From contig JAKIVZ010000002.1 in the NCBI GenBank assembly GCA_022750295.1, forward strand, positions 80,989 to 144,988: a DNA stretch of 64,000 nucleotides, in the 5' to 3' direction. The position numbers were made by a program, and so were the translations under genes. Source of the DNA: Candidatus Lutacidiplasma silvani (lineage in GTDB: Archaea > Thermoplasmatota > Thermoplasmata > Lutacidiplasmatales > UBA184). Position 1 is the first letter of the stretch; each line of letters begins with the position of its first letter. The notes under the pieces are model-generated. The model did not search any database. It saw only the letters and a list, made by a program, of their open reading frames with translations, and had not been told where the DNA came from. Below are positions 7,242 to 63,955 of the stretch, one piece after another.

Positions 7242-7632
7242 AGCATCCCCGAGCCCGGATGCGATGGTCGACTACCTTGAAGCCCACCGCTCCCAGGCCG
7301 TCGCCAAGGTCCTCGAGCTCTACAACGCGACGACGGTCCTCCTCCTGCTCGGGATCGCTGGACTGGCCATCTACGCGTTCCGGCTCGGTCCGCTCGTCGG
7401 GCCGGGGGTCGAGGAGTCGTTCGGACTGGCGGCTGGCGCGATGTTCGTCATGGGCGCGCTTCTCGTCCACCTTGTCGACCGGACCTACCGGAGCTGGCCC
7501 CTCGGCCGCAAGTTCCGGCCGGAGGTGCCGCCCGCCGTTTCACCGGCCGGGACGGCGCGGTTGGTCACCTGGCTGATCGTCCTCGCGGCGGCCGCCGGGA
7601 TTGTCTACGTCGTCGCCCAGCTGATCATGTGA
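7234..7632 (+). CDS. small multi-TM membrane protein (possible SoxI-like accessory subunit)
   Basis: Three hydrophobic helices, no recognisable domain, located between the cytochrome b and coxA genes. Confidence 0.4.
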
Positions 7633-7648
7633 AGGGGGAACCGAACCG

Positions 7649-9352
7649 ATGACTGATCTGGTAACGCCCGGCATCGAAATCGCCATGATCGTGGCGCTCG
7701 CAGCGTTCGGGCTCTACCTCACGCGCTACCACGGCGAGTGGTTCGTCAAGAAGGCGTCGCTGTACCTCTTCACCACCGATCACAAGCGCATCGGATTGAT
7801 GTACATCACCACGGGTATGGTGTTCTTCTTCATCGGCGGGATCTACGCGATCCTGATCCGGACCGACCTCGGCTTCGTGCAGGGACTCGGTCTCGACCCG
7901 CAGACGACCCTCGGAATCACCCCGGACGTCTACTCGACCCTGTTCACGATGCACGGGGTTCTGATGATCTTCATGTTCATCATGCCCGTCCTGGCCGGGT
8001 TCGGCAACTACCTCGTCCCGTCGATGATCGGGGCGAAGGAGATGGCGCTCCCCCGGATCAACGCGATCGCGTTCTGGATGCTCCCGCCCGCGGGCGTGAT
8101 CCTGATCCTGTCGAACGCGTACGCGGGTTGGACCGGCTACGTCCCCCTCTCCATCGAGGCGTACGGGCCGAACCCCCACGGGGTCGACCTCTGGATCCTC
8201 GGACTCCACATCCTCTCGGCTTCGTCGATGCTGGGCGCGATCAACTTCCTCGTCACCATCGTCAAGCACCGGGCCCCCGGCGTCCACTACTGGAACATGC
8301 CCCTCTTCGTCTGGGCGACGCTGATCAACTCGGTCCTCCTGATCTTCGCCCTCCCGTCGCTGTCGATCGCGCTCACGATGGTCCTTTCCGACCGGAACTT
8401 CGGGACGCACATCCTCGCGGCCGCGAACGGCACGCCGCTCGGCGGCGCGCTCCTCTATCAGAATATGTTCTGGTTCTTCGCCCATCCCGAAGTCTACGTG
8501 ATGGTGTTACCGGCCTTTGGTATCATCTCCACGGTCATTCCCAAACTCGCGCGGAAGGACATCTTCGGGTACGGCGCCATGGCGATCTCGCTCGGCGTGT
8601 TCGCCGTCCTTTCGTTCGCCGTCTGGGAGCACCACATGTTCGTCACGGGGCTCCCCCCGGACGTCCAGTTCGTCTTCATGCTCTCGACGATGGCGATCGC
8701 GGTCCCCTCCGCCGTCAAGACGTTCAACTGGGTCGCGACCCTCTGGGGCGGCAAAATCTGGATGGCGGTCCCGATGTGGTTCTCGGTGGCGTTCATCACC
8801 GGGTTCGTGATCGGCGGCCTCTCGGGCCTCATGTTGGCCGCGATCCCGGTCGATTACCTCTATCACGCGACGTACTTCGTCGTCGCGCACTTCCACTACA
8901 TCCTGCTCGGCGGGACGCTGATGGGGATCTTCGCGGGGATCTACTTCTACTACCCGATCTGGACCAAGCGCTGGTATTCCCAGCGGCTCGGCCACGTCCA
9001 CTTCCTCCTCACGTACATCGGCGTGAACCTCCTGCTGTTCCCGATGTTCCTCCTCGGCGCCGAGGGGATGCCCCGGCGGGTCTACACCTACCTTCCGACG
9101 CTGAACTTCCAGGAGCTGAACTTCCTCGCGAGCGTCGGCGCGATGATCCTCGGGGTCGGCCAGTTGGTCTTCGCGTTCAACATGGTCTACAGCTACTTCG
9201 CCGGCCAGAAGGTCACGACCGACGACCCGTGGGACGAGCCGGCCCCCACGCGGATGATCGGCGGGACCCCCGCGCCCGCGCCGGCCCCGCTCCCCTCGTC
9301 CCACCGGACGCCGCTCCCGACGACGGCGCCGTCGATCGAGCCGACCCCGTAG
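7649..9352 (+). CDS. coxA: heme-copper oxidase subunit I
   Basis: 567 aa, 12+ TM. Conserved CoxI regions include WFFGHPEVY (here [17 protein letters not shown]) and the HH metal ligands (HFHYILLGG). Confidence 0.9.
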
Positions 9353-10912: not shown

Positions 10913-11677
10913 GTGGCGCCCGGGGAAGCGCGACGTTATGCTCGCCGCAGTGGTGATTGGGTCGTGACCGACCGAGCTCCGACCGGGACGGGGCGTGACG
11001 TCCGCGACCGACTGCGCGAAGCGGAATCGACGCTCCGGCGGCTCGGGTACGCCCGCATCGAACCGAGCGTCCGGGAGGGCTCCGCACCCCCCGCGTTCTG
11101 GGTCCAGGAGGCCGGTGTTCCCCGCCGCACGTTCCCCGTCTTCGTTCCCCCCACCGGCGAGGCCAGCGGGGCCGGCCCGTGGTCGGGGTCGAAGCCCCGG
11201 GGCGGGCGGGCCGCTCCTTCAAGCCGGGCGATCGTCGTCGTCGGCAGCGACCTCGCCGCCGAGGCAACGTGGAATCGGATCGCCTCCGAAGGGGGGGCGG
11301 AACTCGACTCCGAGGTTCGGATCCTGGTCCTCGGCGCCGCCGAACAGGACCGACCCCACTGGCACGCCATGGTCGTCGACCGACGGACCCTGCTCCGGCT
11401 CTCCACCGGGGTCGTCGTCGGGATGTTCCGGCGGGCGTTCGCCTCGGGGGGACAGACTCCCGTGGACTTCTCCGAGCTCCTCGAGATCCTCCGGGAGCGG
11501 TTCCATCTCGACGTTCCGGGCTCACTTGGGGTCTCCTCGGACGAGGACGCGCTCTTCCTCCTCTACCAGCTCGCGCAGCGGGATTCGTACGCGCCCGGAG
11601 ACTCGGCATCGAACCTCCACTCCCTCGTGCTGAAGCCGACCGGGCCGGCGGCCCGCCTTCCCTGGTTCGCGGGCTAG
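10913..11677 (+). CDS. hypothetical protein (254 aa), no recognised domain
   Basis: Intact ORF with a plausible C-terminal globular region (LLRLSTGVVVGMFRRAF...LLEILRERFHLDVPG). Function unknown. Confidence 0.35.
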   Translation: MAPGEARRYARRSGDWVVTDRAPTGTGRDVRDRLREAESTLRRLGYARIEPSVREGSAPPAFWVQEAGVPRRTFPVFVPPTGEASGAGPWSGSKPRGGRAAPSSRAIVVVGSDLAAEATWNRIASEGGAELDSEVRILVLGAAEQDRPHWHAMVVDRRTLLRLSTGVVVGMFRRAFASGGQTPVDFSELLEILRERFHLDVPGSLGVSSDEDALFLLYQLAQRDSYAPGDSASNLHSLVLKPTGPAARLPWFAG

Positions 11678-11727
11678 CGCCGCACGAACCGAGCCGTTAA
11701 GAATCGGGGCGCGAACTCCTCCCCGAG

Positions 11728-11913
11728 GTGCCGATGCCGCCGTCCGAGGTCGTGAATCCCTATGCCACCACGCCGGGAAGCTCCACGCCGGGCCGCGGGG
11801 TCTCCGCCGAGGAGGGGGTCGCCGACCTCTGGTCGTTCTTCTGGCTCTCGATCATCGGGACCGTCGTCATCGTCGGCGTCGGGATGGCGGCGTTCCTCGT
11901 CGTGCACCCCTGA
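11728..11913 (+). CDS. possible small single-TM protein (61 aa)
   Basis: C-terminal hydrophobic helix LWSFFWLSIIGTVVIVGVGMAAFLVV; weak support. Confidence 0.2.
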   Translation: MPMPPSEVVNPYATTPGSSTPGRGVSAEEGVADLWSFFWLSIIGTVVIVGVGMAAFLVVHP

Positions 11914-58672: not shown

Positions 58673-59713
58673 ATGCCCGCGATGGGGCGAAGTGCGGCGG
58701 CCGAGAGCCGGACTGGACCGCGCGACCGCGCGATCGAGCGGGTCCGACAGCTCCTGGAGAGCGCGGGATTCTTCGTCACCGACGCCCACCATGTCCGCCC
58801 GAGCAGCTTCGACCTGATGGCCCGGCGCGACTCGCAACTGCTCATCGTCAAGATCCTGAAGAACATCGACGCGCTCGACCCCGGCGAAGCGGCCCGGATC
58901 GCCGAGCTCGGCCGACAGTTCCCGGCCAAAGTCCTCGTCATCGGTCACACCTCTGGGGGGAACGAGCTCGAACCCGGCGTGGTCTACAGCCGGTACGGCG
59001 TGCCCATCGTCGTCGAGGAGAGCCTGCAGGAGTACCTCCAGAAAGGGATCCCGCCGTTCCTGTTCAGCGGCCCGGGCGGAATCTTCGCCCGCGTCGACGG
59101 CCCGCGGCTCCGCGCCCTCCGGGAGGAGCGGCGGATCTCGCTCGGGGCCCTCGCCTCGATCGCTGGAGTCTCGCGACGGACCATCCAACTCTACGAGGAC
59201 GGCGCGGGGGCCGAGGTCGAGATCATCGAGCGCCTCGAGCGGTATCTCTCCGAGCCGATCGCCCGGCCCCTCGACCTGTTCGCCGACGAGCGGCCGAGCC
59301 CCGCGGACGGAGCGCCCGGTACCCCGGCCGATCCCGACCCCGCCGAGACGCCTCGGCGGCTTCGTCCGACGGGGGACGCGCTCCGCGACGGAGTCGTCCG
59401 CCAGCTCAATGGGATGGGCTGGGAGGTCACCGTGACGATCCGCTGCCCGTTCGACGCGCTCTCCCACGCCGACGCGCGGGGCGCCGACCGAACGTTGCTC
59501 ACCTCGGTGGGGACGCTCCGCACCGCGCAGAGTCGGGCCGACCTTCTCCTCCAACTCGCCCGAGTCGCCGAGGGCCACGCGATGTTCGTCGTCCGCGAGG
59601 CGACCGACCGCACCGACATCGAGGGTCTTCCGATCCTCTCGGTCCGGGAGCTCCAACGCCACCGGGACCGCGGCGAACTCATCGACGTCATCGAGGAGCG
59701 GGGCGCCGGGTGA
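58673..59713 (+). CDS. archaeal XRE-type HTH transcriptional regulator (COG1395-like)
   Basis: Central HTH (ISLGALASIAGVSRRTIQLYEDG) flanked by conserved N- and C-domains. Start at the internal ATG 58673. Confidence 0.55.
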   Translation: MPAMGRSAAAESRTGPRDRAIERVRQLLESAGFFVTDAHHVRPSSFDLMARRDSQLLIVKILKNIDALDPGEAARIAELGRQFPAKVLVIGHTSGGNELEPGVVYSRYGVPIVVEESLQEYLQKGIPPFLFSGPGGIFARVDGPRLRALREERRISLGALASIAGVSRRTIQLYEDGAGAEVEIIERLERYLSEPIARPLDLFADERPSPADGAPGTPADPDPAETPRRLRPTGDALRDGVVRQLNGMGWEVTVTIRCPFDALSHADARGADRTLLTSVGTLRTAQSRADLLLQLARVAEGHAMFVVREATDRTDIEGLPILSVRELQRHRDRGELIDVIEERGAG

Positions 59714-60378
59714 TCGAGCGCGTCCTCAACGGCGTGACGGTCCTCGGGGCGGTCCGAGGCCTCGTCGCCGAGGGGGACAGCGTACGGAATCGGCTCGAAC
59801 GGATGACACCGTCGGCCGTCGGAATCGCAATCTCGCCGGACGAGTTGAAGGGGCTGCGCGAGTACTTCGTCTCTCCCGAGACCGAACCGGTCGTCCCGCT
59901 CGCCCCGACCGAGGCCGGCGAGGTCCGCGGCCTCGCGCGCTACGGGGAGGTCGGCGTCCCGAACCCGGTCGCGGTCGAGGCGATCCGCTGGTCGGACGGC
60001 GCCGGCGTTGAGGTCGAGCCGCTCGACCCGTCGGACGACGACTACTCCGAATGGTTCGCGGACACGATCAGTTACGTCGAGCTCGTCCGCCGGACGCTGC
60101 GGGAGCGCCGGGTCGTCAAGCGCCCCCCCACCCCGCCGACGGCCGACGAATTCGCCATGAGTTGGAGTCGGACGATCAACAAGGGAGCGGGTTCCCGGCG
60201 CCTCATCGCGCGTCGCGACGCGGCCGTGATCGAGGGGCTCGGTCGGTTGCGCGCCCGCCACGCGTCCGTCGTGCTCCTCGTCGACCGCGAACGGTTCGAC
60301 GGCGTCGTGACGCTCCTCAACGACGGGTTCGCCTCCGTCCGGACGCCGGTCGGCGATTCGTATCGTGCGAGCCGTTAA
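59710..60378 (+). CDS. hypothetical protein, weakly TraB-family-like with degenerate motifs
   Basis: GTG start overlapping the regulator stop (GTGA). VTVLGAVRGL and VVLLVDRERFDG resemble TraB GTAHV/GxxHxxG positions but lack the His residues. Confidence 0.35.
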   Translation: MIERVLNGVTVLGAVRGLVAEGDSVRNRLERMTPSAVGIAISPDELKGLREYFVSPETEPVVPLAPTEAGEVRGLARYGEVGVPNPVAVEAIRWSDGAGVEVEPLDPSDDDYSEWFADTISYVELVRRTLRERRVVKRPPTPPTADEFAMSWSRTINKGAGSRRLIARRDAAVIEGLGRLRARHASVVLLVDRERFDGVVTLLNDGFASVRTPVGDSYRASR

Positions 60379-61948
60379 GAACCGCCTCGCCCCCATGGGA
60401 CTCCCTAGGTTCCTCTCGATGCCCCCTCTGGCGTCCGAAAGCCGGAAGAGCCGGCCCTACGCCGTGGTGGACGTCGGCTCGAACACGGCGCGGCTCGCCG
60501 TCTTCGAGGTCACCCCGGCCGGCGGGTTGCGGGCGGCGTTCGAGTCGAAGGAGGTCCCGCGTCTTGGCGAGGGGACCGGCGAAGACCGCTCCCTCTCGGA
60601 CGCCGCGGTCCGTCGCGGGGTCGAGGCGCTCGCGCGATTCCGCCGACGGCTGGCGGCCGCCGGCGACCCTCCCGCGATCTCGGTCGCTACGAGCGCCGTG
60701 CGGGACGCACCGAACGGCGCCGAGTTCGTCGCCCGGGTCCGAGCGGCGACCGGCTTCAACTTGCGGATCCTCTCGGGCGAGGAGGAGGCGCGGTACGCCT
60801 ACCTCGGCGTCGCCGGCGCGTGGCACCTCCACTCCGATACGATCGTCGACCTGGGCGGCGGCTCGCTCCAGGCGGTGCGCACGAAGGGCGGCGAAATCGA
60901 AGCGGCGGGGAGCGGTCCCCTCGGAGCCCTGCGACTCACCGAGGCGTTCCTCGAACACGACCCACCGAAGCAGCGAGAGTTGGAGCGGCTGCGGACCCAC
61001 GTGCGGGCCGAGCTTCGCAAGCTCCGCGGGGCCGGGGTCGTCCGCGGTCAGCTCTACGGCGTCGGCGGGACGATCCGGTGTCTGGCCCGCGTCGGGGTCG
61101 ACCTCACGAACTATCCGCTCGAGCGGGTCCACGGGTATCCGCTCACCCGACGGACGCTCGCCCGCGTGGAGCGGGTCCTGCTCGGACTCGACGCGGACGA
61201 GCGACGCCGGATCCCCGGGGTCGGCGGGCACCGGGCCGACGTCATCGTCGCGGGCGCGATCGTCGTCGACGAGCTGATGCGGCGGACCGAAGCCGATTCG
61301 CTCGTCGTCAGCGCGACCGGGATCCGCGAGGGGATCGCGATCGAGCACGCCGGGATCCGGGTGCCGGCCGCCTCCGAGACGCTCGCCTGGCGCTCGGTCA
61401 CCGCCGAGGCGAGCGCGCTCGGGTTCTCGCTCCCCCATGGCGAAGCGGTCCGGGGGGTTGCGGTCGAGCTGTTCGAGGCGCTCGCCCCGAGGTTCGGATG
61501 GGGCGCGAGCGAACGGCTCTCCCTCGACGTCGCGGCGTGGATGCACGACGTCGGATGGACGATCGACCCGTGGCGCCACGCGAAGCACTCGGCGTACGTT
61601 CTCCGCCACGCCGCGATCCATGGTCTGACCCACCGGGAAGTGGCGATCGCGAGCATCGTCGCCTACCTCCACGAAGGCGACCCGTTCCCGGCCCCCTGGA
61701 AGGAGACGTTCCACGAGATCCTCACCGACGACGACCTCGAGACCTCCCGCCGGCTCGGGGCGCTCGTCTTCTTCGCCGAGGCGCTCGACGGGGCGCGGCC
61801 CGGGATCTCGATCCCGCGCGGCTCCGACCGTCTGGTTCTGACCCCCGAAGCGGGCCGGGGCGCCCGCCCGTCCGACCGAACCGTCCAACGGCTCCGGAAG
61901 CCGACGCGTCGCGCCCTTGGGCTGGAGGTCGAGCTGAATGGCCGCTGA
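60365..61948 (+). CDS. ppx: Ppx/GppA-family exopolyphosphatase/pppGpp phosphohydrolase with a C-terminal HD-like domain
   Basis: VVDVGSNTARLAVFE (the ASKHA phosphate-1 motif), DLGGGS phosphate-2 and C-terminal HD-like helices. Confidence 0.8.
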   Translation: MRAVKNRLAPMGLPRFLSMPPLASESRKSRPYAVVDVGSNTARLAVFEVTPAGGLRAAFESKEVPRLGEGTGEDRSLSDAAVRRGVEALARFRRRLAAAGDPPAISVATSAVRDAPNGAEFVARVRAATGFNLRILSGEEEARYAYLGVAGAWHLHSDTIVDLGGGSLQAVRTKGGEIEAAGSGPLGALRLTEAFLEHDPPKQRELERLRTHVRAELRKLRGAGVVRGQLYGVGGTIRCLARVGVDLTNYPLERVHGYPLTRRTLARVERVLLGLDADERRRIPGVGGHRADVIVAGAIVVDELMRRTEADSLVVSATGIREGIAIEHAGIRVPAASETLAWRSVTAEASALGFSLPHGEAVRGVAVELFEALAPRFGWGASERLSLDVAAWMHDVGWTIDPWRHAKHSAYVLRHAAIHGLTHREVAIASIVAYLHEGDPFPAPWKETFHEILTDDDLETSRRLGALVFFAEALDGARPGISIPRGSDRLVLTPEAGRGARPSDRTVQRLRKPTRRALGLEVELNGR

Positions 61949-62666
61949 AGCCGTCCCGGCCCTCCCCGAGGGCACGACCCCGTCGGGGAGCCGGCTCGCC
62001 GGCCGTCTCCTCGTGTTCGAGGGCCTCGACGGCTCCGGGAAGTCGACCCAGGCCCGGCTGCTAGTGAAGTGGCTGCAGGCGCGCGGCTACCGGGTGTTCT
62101 TCACCGAATGGAACTCGTCCGAGCTGATCAGCGACACGATCCGTCGCGGCAAGAAGAAGAACCTCCTGACCCCGACCACCTTCTCCCTGCTCCACGCCAC
62201 CGATTTCGCCGACCGGCTCGAGCGGCACGTGATCCCGCCGCTGCGGGCGGGCTACGTCGTCATCTGCGACCGGTACGCGTACACCGCGTTCGTGCGCGAC
62301 GCCGCGCGGGGGTGCGACCCGGACTGGGTGCGCAGCCTCTACGGGTTCGCGCCGAAACCGGACAAGGTGTTCTACTTCCGCGTCCCGGTCGCCACGTCGC
62401 TCGCGCGAAAGCTCGCGAGCCGCCAGAAGATCTCCTACTACGAAGCCGGAATGGACCTCGGGCTCGCCGACGACCTCATCGAGTGCTACGAGAAGTTCCA
62501 GTCGCGGCTCAAGCGCGAGTACGAGCGGCTCGTCCCGACCGACGGGTTCGTCGTCATCGACGCGGACAAGCCGGTCGAGACCGTCCTCAACCAGGTCCGC
62601 CGCGAGGTGCGACCGCTCTTGACCGGGTTCCCGAAAGCGGAGGCGCTCGTCCATGCCGACGAATAG
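61938..62666 (+). CDS. thymidylate-kinase-like P-loop kinase, paralogue A (canonical P-loop)
   Basis: FEGLDGSGKSTQ P-loop and CDRYAYT (DRY motif); it also carries a YYEAGMDL insert shared with the downstream paralogue. Confidence 0.75.
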   Translation: MAAEAVPALPEGTTPSGSRLAGRLLVFEGLDGSGKSTQARLLVKWLQARGYRVFFTEWNSSELISDTIRRGKKKNLLTPTTFSLLHATDFADRLERHVIPPLRAGYVVICDRYAYTAFVRDAARGCDPDWVRSLYGFAPKPDKVFYFRVPVATSLARKLASRQKISYYEAGMDLGLADDLIECYEKFQSRLKREYERLVPTDGFVVIDADKPVETVLNQVRREVRPLLTGFPKAEALVHADE

Positions 62667-63360
62667 GACCTACGGGACCAAACTCCCGGGGATGCCCCGG
62701 GACCCGTTTCCCGGGAAGCTGATCGTTCTCGAGGGGGCGGACGGCTCGGGCCGGACGACCGAAGTCGACCTCCTCCGCGAGTGGCTCGAGGTCGAGGGCC
62801 ACCCGGTCGTCGACACCGGACTCCGCCGCTCGTCGCTCCTCAGCGAGCAGATCGAGGAGGCGAAGAAGGGGAACACGCTGAGCGCGACGACCCTCGCACT
62901 CCTCTACGCCGCCGACTTCGCCGACCAGCTCGAGAACAAGATCATCCCGTCGCTTTCGGCGGGGAGCACGGTGCTCGCCGACCGGTACGTCTACACGCTG
63001 ATGGCCCGCGCGATCGTCCGCGGAGCGAGCCGGTCGTGGGCCGAGAAGCTGTACGGGTTCGCCCTCGTTCCCGACCTCACGATCTTCCTCGACGCGAAGA
63101 CCGACATCCTGCTCCACCGCGCGATCGCGAAGTACGGGAGCCTCGACTACTGGGAGAGCGGGATGGACCTCTGCCTGTCCCGCGACCGGTTCGAGAGCTT
63201 CTACCGATACCAGTCGCTGTTGCGCGCGGAGTTCGGCGTGATGGAGAACCGGTACGGGTTCCATCGCGTCGACGCGAATCGGACCCCGACCGGGGTCCAC
63301 CGGGAGACCCGGGACCTCGTCGCCCCGCTGTTCCATCCCGAAGGACGTCGGCGTCGGTAG
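62653..63360 (+). CDS. thymidylate-kinase-like P-loop kinase, paralogue B (P-loop Lys replaced by Arg)
   Basis: LEGADGSGRTT (K to R), LADRYVYT and YWESGMDL; overlaps the paralogue A stop by 14 nt. Confidence 0.7.
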   Translation: MPTNRTYGTKLPGMPRDPFPGKLIVLEGADGSGRTTEVDLLREWLEVEGHPVVDTGLRRSSLLSEQIEEAKKGNTLSATTLALLYAADFADQLENKIIPSLSAGSTVLADRYVYTLMARAIVRGASRSWAEKLYGFALVPDLTIFLDAKTDILLHRAIAKYGSLDYWESGMDLCLSRDRFESFYRYQSLLRAEFGVMENRYGFHRVDANRTPTGVHRETRDLVAPLFHPEGRRRR

Positions 63361-63442
63361 GTCCCCCGTACCCCAGAGGCTCGCGCGGGGACCGACCACG
63401 GTTGGTCGGACCGTTTCGGCGGGCCTTGCCCGACACGGGACG

Positions 63443-63955
63443 TTAGAGTCGTCGACCGACGCGGGTCAGCGCCTTCCGGTCGAGCCGCCAGGCGAGCGTG
63501 CCGCCGCCGGCCCGAATCGCCTTCGGGAACTCGACGGCGGCCGTTCCGGCGCGACCCAACCGAGTGACCGATACCGCATCGCCGGCGATGGCGAGACCCA
63601 CGAGCTCGCCGAGTTGCGGCTCGTGGCCGACGAGCAGGACCGTAGCGCGACGGGTCCCGTCCTCGGCCAATCGTTCGAGGAGAGGCGCGGCGGGGGCCCC
63701 GGGGGCAAGTTCGGGCCAGTCGATCAGTTTCGACCGGACGCCCAGGGTGTTCCGGAGGATCTCCGCCGTGGCGCGGGCGCGGGTCGCGGGGCTGGTGAGG
63801 ATCGTCCCGACCTGGCGCTCCAGGGCCGCGATTCCGGCGGCGGCGTCCCGCGTCTCACGACGACCGTCGCGGGACAACGGTCGCAAGTCGTCGTTCGACC
63901 ACCGTCGGGGGTCGCGCGATTCCGCCGGGCCATGCCGGACAATCAGGAGGCGCAC
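63443..63955 (-). CDS. histidine phosphatase superfamily protein (SixA/phosphoglycerate-mutase-like)
   Basis: LLIVRHGPA (RHG catalytic motif) and LLVGHEPQLG (second His). Confidence 0.7.
   Translation of the reverse strand: MRLLIVRHGPAESRDPRRWSNDDLRPLSRDGRRETRDAAAGIAALERQVGTILTSPATRARATAEILRNTLGVRSKLIDWPELAPGAPAAPLLERLAEDGTRRATVLLVGHEPQLGELVGLAIAGDAVSVTRLGRAGTAAVEFPKAIRAGGGTLAWRLDRKALTRVGRRL

Follow-up and report, generated by a model that had tools for sequence, protein, structure and literature searches.

A stretch of 64,000 nucleotides from the archaeon Candidatus Lutacidiplasma silvani (contig JAKIVZ010000002.1, positions 80,989 to 144,988; here called the window) carries two overlapping genes, A and B, whose products have the thymidylate kinase (Tmk) fold. 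A has a canonical P-loop, B has arginine in the place of the Walker A lysine. What reaction does such an unequal pair serve, and what is the role of the second member? We find it quite probable that A and B are the catalytic (cPPK3) and regulatory (rPPK3) subunits encoded by a PPK3-type polyphosphate operon in Thermoplasmata, A being the catalytic protein and B a non-catalytic activator. Judged by sequence, the pair appears to be a Thermoplasmata member of the recently described PPK3 family, and the lysine to arginine change is a conserved hallmark of the regulatory subunit, not an oddity of this genome.

The gene pair

A (61938-62666, 242 amino acids) and B (62653-63360, 235 amino acids) are both on the forward strand and run from ATG to TAG. 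The genes overlap by 14 nt, the ATG of B lying within A. The ATG of A lies 11 nt inside the 3' end of the preceding ppx open reading frame (ORF), whose stop codon is at 61946-61948. Direct reading of the forward strand shows a Shine-Dalgarno-like GGAGG 9 nt upstream of each start: at 61924-61928, within the ppx coding sequence, for A, and at 62639-62643, within the coding sequence of A, for B. The window has a guanine plus cytosine (GC) content of approximately 70%, and the GC content of third codon positions (GC3) is 0.94 in A and 0.92 in B, which argues that both are real coding frames. The possibility of a frameshifted or fused single gene was rejected, because A and B are each full length, with the same boundaries, in more than 100 orthologues.

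The two proteins are 39% identical over 223 residues (E = 4e-52), a likeness not due to chance, and both match the Pfam family Thymidylate_kin (PF02223; 9e-30 for A, 3e-20 for B). The Walker A motif of A is GLDGSGKST, with the canonical Lys35 (62022-62048, +). That of B is GADGSGRTT (62734-62760, +), where Arg34, encoded by CGG at 62752-62754, stands instead of lysine. The DRY motif (DRX or Walker B motif) is present in both, at 62268-62276 (+) in A and at 62980-62988 (+) in B, where it is kept as ADRYVYT, in contrast to the DGY or DSY of Sulfolobaceae rPPK3. These motifs were read directly from the sequence. A sequence-only reading of this DNA had described such a pair at 61938-63360; its coordinates were exact and every motif it quoted is present. 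The reading did not identify a polyphosphate kinase, nor did it mention the ppx and sixA context.

Assignment to the PPK3 family

PPK3 is a family of recent description (2024-2026), and the reports of it came mainly from Sulfolobaceae, Nitrososphaeraceae and a few bacteria. The Sulfolobus acidocaldarius operon sixA, ppx, saci_2019, saci_2020, CHAD encodes a heteromeric polyphosphate kinase, PPK3 (Hofmann et al., J Biol Chem 2026, PMC12995831). In that study Saci_2019 (cPPK3) was catalytic and Saci_2020 (rPPK3) was inactive alone, with neither polyphosphate kinase (PPK) nor deoxythymidine monophosphate (dTMP) kinase activity; Saci_2019 likewise had no dTMP kinase activity (PMC12995831). At a 1:1 ratio Saci_2020 boosted the activity approximately 10-fold, in an alpha2beta2 complex, and the enzyme (SaPPK3) was reversible and favoured the formation of ATP from polyphosphate and ADP (PMC12995831). 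Neither Thermoplasmata nor the Walker A Lys/Arg difference is mentioned in the main text of the paper by Hofmann et al. or in its preprint, and a literature search for PPK3 together with Thermoplasmata returned nothing relevant.

The closest solved structure to A and B is that of a cPPK3 homologue, STK_15430 (ST1543) of Sulfurisphaera tokodaii (crystal structures 2plr, 4nzy, 4rzx and 5h70). It is the best PDB sequence match of A (E = 5.5e-60, the best canonical Tmk giving 1.9e-16) as well as of B (2.5e-36, the best canonical Tmk giving 9.8e-14). Structures were compared using AlphaFold monomer models of A and B, with pLDDT (predicted local distance difference test) values of 88 and 86, respectively. 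The model of A superimposed on STK_15430 (5h70) with a template modelling (TM) score of 0.94 and a root mean square deviation of 1.5 Å, that of B with TM scores of 0.88-0.91, and canonical Tmks came behind STK_15430, with 0.72-0.87. In a neighbour-joining tree A shared its group with STK_15430 and the cPPK3 of Metallosphaera, B shared its own with Saci_2020 and further rPPK3 proteins, and the pair was apart from the two canonical Tmk outgroups. It must be noted that the tree was made without bootstrap, that these two were its only outgroups and that the r group was not cleanly monophyletic in it; for these reasons we make no claim on the order of duplications. The protein used as Saci_2020 (P0428) was confirmed to lie in the expected S. 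acidocaldarius operon of His_Phos_1, Ppx, Tmk (213 aa), Tmk (210 aa) and a 206-aa ORF.

A carries the c-type signature, i.e. GxDGSGKST, EWNSS, GKKK, H86, R93 and DRY, and B carries the r-type signature GxDGxGR[ST]T, G[LM]xRS, Y85 and Q92. The dTMP-binding EP motif of canonical Tmk ('REPGG') is not kept. In the alignment with Thermus thermophilus Tmk, TREPGG falls opposite TEWNSS of A, and the same site reads TGLRRS in B. The replacing motif EWNSSE (62106-62123, +) is conserved in c genes only. That the pair could combine a catalytic with a regulatory or substrate-binding subunit had been proposed in the sequence-only reading, and this idea is supported by the position of A in the catalytic clade and of B in the clade of Saci_2020, the architecture having been demonstrated experimentally for the S. 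acidocaldarius pair. Membership in the PPK2 family was rejected, as there was no match to the PPK2 Pfam family (PF03976) at E <= 0.01; the sole PPK2-type match (TIGR03708, E = 0.0066) was confined to residues 24-62 around the P-loop.

The Walker A arginine in the r subfamily

A scan of contigs, with one genome per species, found cPPK3-like loci in more than 567 species-level genomes. We kept 80 of these c-type loci, all from other bacterial and archaeal genomes; they span Acidobacteriota, Verrucomicrobiota, Nitrososphaerales, Thermoplasmata, Methanoliparum, Chloroflexota and other groups, the first two being frequent. The searches indicate that the module is common. In 77 of the 80 loci an r gene comes directly after the c gene. 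The Walker A lysine is present in all 80 c genes. Among the 77 partner genes 74 have arginine at this position and three have lysine, all three from Gastranaerophilales, and every one of the 120 homologues nearest to B (71% identity or more) has GxDGSGR[ST]T and DR[YF]. Arg34 of B is equivalent to Lys35 of A, the P-loop being free of gaps in every alignment made. Neither of the two findings that the sequence-only reading had named as able to overturn its proposal, an arginine at a non-equivalent position and orthologues of B with lysine, was therefore encountered among the close homologues, and lysine was confined to the three partner genes mentioned. The arginine codons of the partner genes are of all six types (CGN in 65, AGR in 11), and arginine has therefore been maintained through many synonymous changes.

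The signatures of the two subfamilies are sharply distinct. Besides K35 versus R34, they differ in the second-substrate motif, E-W-N-S in c and G-[LM]-x-R in r, and at H86 and R93 of c, which correspond to Y85 and Q92 of r. Conserved in both are DRY, Arg119/120, Arg123/124, the LID arginine 156/157, E-x-G-x-D and Gln187/188. Outside Sulfolobaceae, DR[YF] was found in 76 of the 77 partner genes. Sulfolobaceae had a single locus among the genome-scan matches listed, and their rPPK3 proteins were therefore collected by a protein search with the Metallosphaera rPPK3 as query. In this second set 38 of 39 clusters have DGY or DSY, and the Walker A residue is lysine in 15 clusters and arginine in 24. 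Saci_2020 itself has kept the Walker A lysine (GIMSSGKT) and has lost the DRX arginine (DGY).

The inactivity of rPPK3 has been attributed to the replaced DRX arginine (PMC12995831). Going by the two protein sets, this account holds in Sulfolobaceae only, and the family-wide hallmark of rPPK3 is not the loss of the DRX arginine but the Walker A lysine to arginine change with DRY kept. This refines the definition of the family, arginine in Walker A with DRY retained being the typical rPPK3 state. Because B keeps DRY, the lysine to arginine change is the sole catalytic-motif change in this protein, as it is in most of the family, and because Saci_2020 and B differ in both catalytic motifs, the inactivity of Saci_2020 is an imperfect proxy for B. 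The sequence-only reading had taken the degenerate Walker A motif as a sign of a regulatory or substrate-binding function. The function assigned agrees with the place of B in the r clade; the reasoning is less secure, since Saci_2020 is regulatory with its Walker A lysine in place, so that for B the step from arginine to regulation can be suggested but not read off directly.

Several loci depart from the common pattern. In the metagenome-assembled genomes (MAGs) of Gastranaerophilales (L041, L062 and L074) the partner that keeps the Walker A lysine (GTDGSGKST) has the near-c motif SEWKTS and branches beside the c clade in the neighbour-joining tree; this partner could be an r subunit that diverged less, or could stem from an independent duplication. 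A further r subtype, with GTDGVGRST and TGWTRS (L008, L023, L048, L055, L067, L072 and others), scores nearly equally against A and B. In the same tree its branch is closer to the c clade than that of the main r group, and rPPK3 may for this reason not be monophyletic. Two loci of the Thermoproteota MAG GS_HAYS_MAG_00077 (L016 and L018) have ppx and cPPK3, and no r partner was detected in them, the contig of L016 reaching 6 kb downstream; these two are exceptions to the constant co-occurrence of c and r. Natural fusions were also found. In P0241 (460 aa) a c domain (GTDGSGKST) is fused to an r domain with the Walker A sequence GSDYSGHYQ, P0281 and P0361 (about 460 aa) consist of two degenerate domains (GLDRSGTGN plus GIDHAGRST), and P0166 (407 aa) is listed with them. 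A cPPK3-like domain occurs in longer proteins of 650-2575 aa, too (P0244, P0253, P0269, P0319 and P0346).

The extended segment

The sequence-only reading had noted an insert shared by A and B and absent from classical Tmk. The insert is real: HMMER alignments show gaps of 15 (T. thermophilus Tmk) and 17 residues (Plasmodium falciparum Tmk) opposite residues 159-186, approximately, of A. Its core is YYEAGMDLGL in A (62436-62465, +; sequence, alignment and model) and YWESGMDLCL in B (63148-63177, +; sequence and model). In the AlphaFold models the segment (residues 161-179 of A and 162-178 of B) connects the LID helix to the helix that follows; it is modelled with moderate confidence and mostly as coil, A having a single short helical turn there. 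An N-terminal tail of approximately 20 residues makes up the remainder of the extra length of A and B. The segment is found in STK_15430 and in every c and r protein, E-x-G-x-D being conserved in the two subfamilies alike, and it is a feature of the PPK3 family. In the AlphaFold 3 model of Hofmann et al. the lid region is at the interface between the two rPPK3 subunits (PMC12995831).

Proposed roles of A and B

Fold, clade, motifs, gene order and context are direct observations on A and B; polyphosphate kinase activity, activation by B and stoichiometry we infer from homology to SaPPK3. A would be a P-loop kinase of the Tmk fold with a polyphosphate site where Tmk has its dTMP pocket, EWNSS standing in place of the EP motif and basic residues such as GKKK and R93 lining the site. 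It would catalyse reversible phosphoryl transfer between ATP/ADP and polyphosphate, ATP binding at the donor site of Tmk and polyphosphate where dTMP would sit. By analogy with SaPPK3, it probably runs mainly from polyphosphate and ADP towards ATP, as an energy buffer. B would be a non-catalytic partner which binds A 1:1 and activates it; two B subunits probably form the core (B2) of the complex, with an A subunit on either side. The start codons inside the preceding gene and the GGAGG motifs at 9 nt probably mean translational coupling and equimolar subunits, and ppx and sixA would complete a polyphosphate turnover module. In P-loop enzymes, changes of the Walker A lysine to arginine typically abolish phosphoryl transfer. 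On this general ground Arg34 would be expected to abolish it in B, and may still allow ligand binding.

Some observations weigh against these assignments. A exceeds the cut-off of the NCBIfam dTMP-kinase equivalog model (TIGR00041; 108.5 against 83.25) and B stays just below it (81.2); this model does not separate PPK3 from true Tmk. No Pfam match to CHAD was obtained with genes up to 10 kb away in the sister loci L001-L004; the CHAD gene is an accessory, non-universal feature of PPK3 operons, and the window itself ends 45 nt past the sixA gene (63955). Saci_2020 differs from B at exactly the two catalytic motifs, by its Walker A lysine and by DGY for DRY. B also keeps DRY, the LID Arg156, Arg119, Arg123, Asp30 and Thr36, which is unusual for a dead enzyme.

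A more far-reaching reading is offered tentatively, and we regard it as possible though rather doubtful. Walker A arginine together with DRY, the LID arginine and the Mg-binding Ser/Thr would be the ancestral and nearly universal state of rPPK3 and would mark a working ligand site, B being an allosteric sensor of ATP, ADP or polyphosphate which does not turn over its ligand and sets the direction of cPPK3 by energy charge. The loss of the DRX arginine would then be secondary in Sulfolobaceae, after which the constraint on Walker A relaxed and lysine and arginine came to alternate.

It is unlikely, but deserves consideration, that B is itself catalytically active or a specific ligand binder and not an inert scaffold, as a second site with altered donor, acceptor or metal specificity or as an allosteric ATP/ADP/polyphosphate sensor; the alternative named in the sequence-only reading was a second active site of altered nucleotide specificity. 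Except in Sulfolobaceae, the catalytic set of the r subfamily is almost complete (the DR[YF] count given above, LID Arg156, Arg119, Arg123, Asp30, Ser/Thr35-36 and Glu168-x-Gly-x-Asp172), the use of all six codons for the Walker A arginine in 74 of the 77 partners speaks for selection for arginine, not decay, and Saci_2020 gave trace ADP (PMC12995831). The c-specific second-substrate residues (EWNSS, H86 and R93), however, are replaced throughout the r subfamily, and the usual effect of a Walker A lysine to arginine change is the one mentioned above. The positively charged polyphosphate cleft is absent from rPPK3, and Saci_2020 alone had neither of the two kinase activities (PMC12995831). That A, or A and B, are ordinary dTMP kinases next to ppx by coincidence is very improbable: the Pfam and NCBIfam dTMP-kinase models match both proteins, with A above the equivalog cut-off, the source annotations all read 'dTMP kinase' and STK_15430 was deposited as one, but the dTMP-binding EP motif has given way to other residues, the two canonical outgroups stand apart from the clade of the pair, and across many phyla 77 of 80 loci repeat the c-then-r order, ppx lying close by in 53 of the 80.

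Comparison with known systems

It is instructive to compare A and B with the S. acidocaldarius pair (Saci_2019 and Saci_2020). Both systems consist of adjacent, overlapping Tmk-fold paralogues, c followed by r, beside ppx and sixA; A has the c signature, B falls in the clade of Saci_2020, and both systems have the extended segment after the LID helix. The differences concern, apart from the two catalytic motifs of the r subunit (Lys with DGY in Saci_2020, Arg with DRY in B) and the CHAD gene, which was not seen near the Thermoplasmata sister loci, the position of sixA, which is upstream and on the same strand in Sulfolobus and downstream and convergent here. A and B are longer than their Sulfolobus counterparts by 29 and 25 aa, respectively, and have N-terminal tails. 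The host here belongs to Thermoplasmata, with approximately 70% GC, a group not named in PMC12995831.

STK_15430 is approximately 48% identical to A and has the same P-loop, EWNSS, KKK, DRY and extended segment. The differences are that it was first described, and deposited, as a dTMP kinase and that it was solved without its r partner; its segment reads KIKPQEAGADIF, as against KISYYEAGMDLGL. Canonical Tmks (PF02223, TIGR00041; T. thermophilus, Aquifex aeolicus, human) share the fold, the P-loop, DRY and the LID with A and B. In PPK3, by contrast, the EP motif is replaced, the segment after the LID helix is longer by the 15-17 residues mentioned, the genes form a c/r pair with polyphosphate genes, and the homologous Sulfolobus proteins are devoid of dTMP kinase activity. 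A more distant parallel is the two-domain class II PPK2 (for example PA3455/PPK2C of Pseudomonas aeruginosa), in which an active P-loop kinase module is combined with a degenerate one serving oligomerisation, an analogy drawn in PMC12995831. Class II PPK2 belongs to another family, its modules are fused domains and not separate subunits, and its degenerate domain lacks Walker B, whereas B keeps it.

Genomic context

The gene upstream of A is a ppx/gppA exopolyphosphatase (60365-61948, +). It matches Pfam Ppx-GppA (2e-56) and NCBIfam TIGR03706 (2.6e-81; 273.2 bits, below the cut-off of 307). Its start codon is uncertain, the orthologues being called at 494-509 aa. Convergent with B lies a sixA-like histidine phosphatase (63443-63955, -), with matches to Pfam His_Phos_1 (3.5e-9) and NCBIfam sixA (2.2e-19; 69.8 bits, below the cut-off of 74.5). 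ppx has the same position in the near-identical loci L001-L004, and sixA in these and in L043 and L049. The sister loci, which are metagenome contigs, have archaeal exosome, SBDS and proteasome genes upstream of the same ppx, tmk, tmk, sixA block, and those close homologues that are named by source are all labelled 'Thermoplasmata archaeon'. In the kept set ppx lies within 6 kb of the c gene in 53 of the 80 loci, and sixA in 35. The 64-kb window has no third Tmk-like ORF, and neither PPK1 nor PPK2 turned up among the 15 of its ORFs that were scanned.

Judged by sequence, the window carries a complete ppx, cPPK3, rPPK3, sixA module in Thermoplasmata, which extends the known distribution of PPK3. 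Thousands of metagenomic proteins which match the pair are now annotated as 'dTMP kinase', and correcting this annotation would change the reading of polyphosphate and energy-buffer metabolism in these uncultured groups.

Directly upstream of ppx is an ORF of 222 aa (59710-60378, +) without Pfam or NCBIfam match, which is conserved in the sister loci L001-L003 and overlaps the start of ppx by 14 nt and the preceding PDDEXK_19/helix-turn-helix (HTH) gene by 4 nt. This uncharacterised ORF may belong to the polyphosphate operon as a fifth member. The NCBIfam search with the upstream HTH gene gave no match. The 82-nt spacer between the convergent stop codons of B and sixA (63361-63442) contains the perfect hairpin CCGACCA-CGG-TTGGTCGG, which may act as a bidirectional terminator or a processing site; a scan for sigma-70 promoters and intrinsic terminators gave no useful information, which is what one expects for an archaeon. 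In L001-L004 sixA is followed directly downstream by a gene for a 180-aa P-loop protein of the AAA_18/AAA_17 type, adenylate-kinase-like (11364-11906, -, in L001). Its locus would be just past the end of the window, and it may be relevant to nucleotide and polyphosphate metabolism.

The rest of the window is ordinary archaeal chromosome, with cox1, ADP-forming acetyl-CoA synthetase, pyruvate:ferredoxin oxidoreductase (POR), DNA polymerase B (PolB), aEF-2 and one tRNA-Pro. The haem-copper oxidase subunit I gene (COX1, 1e-143) at 7625-9352 (+) suggests that this Thermoplasmata lineage respires aerobically or microaerobically.

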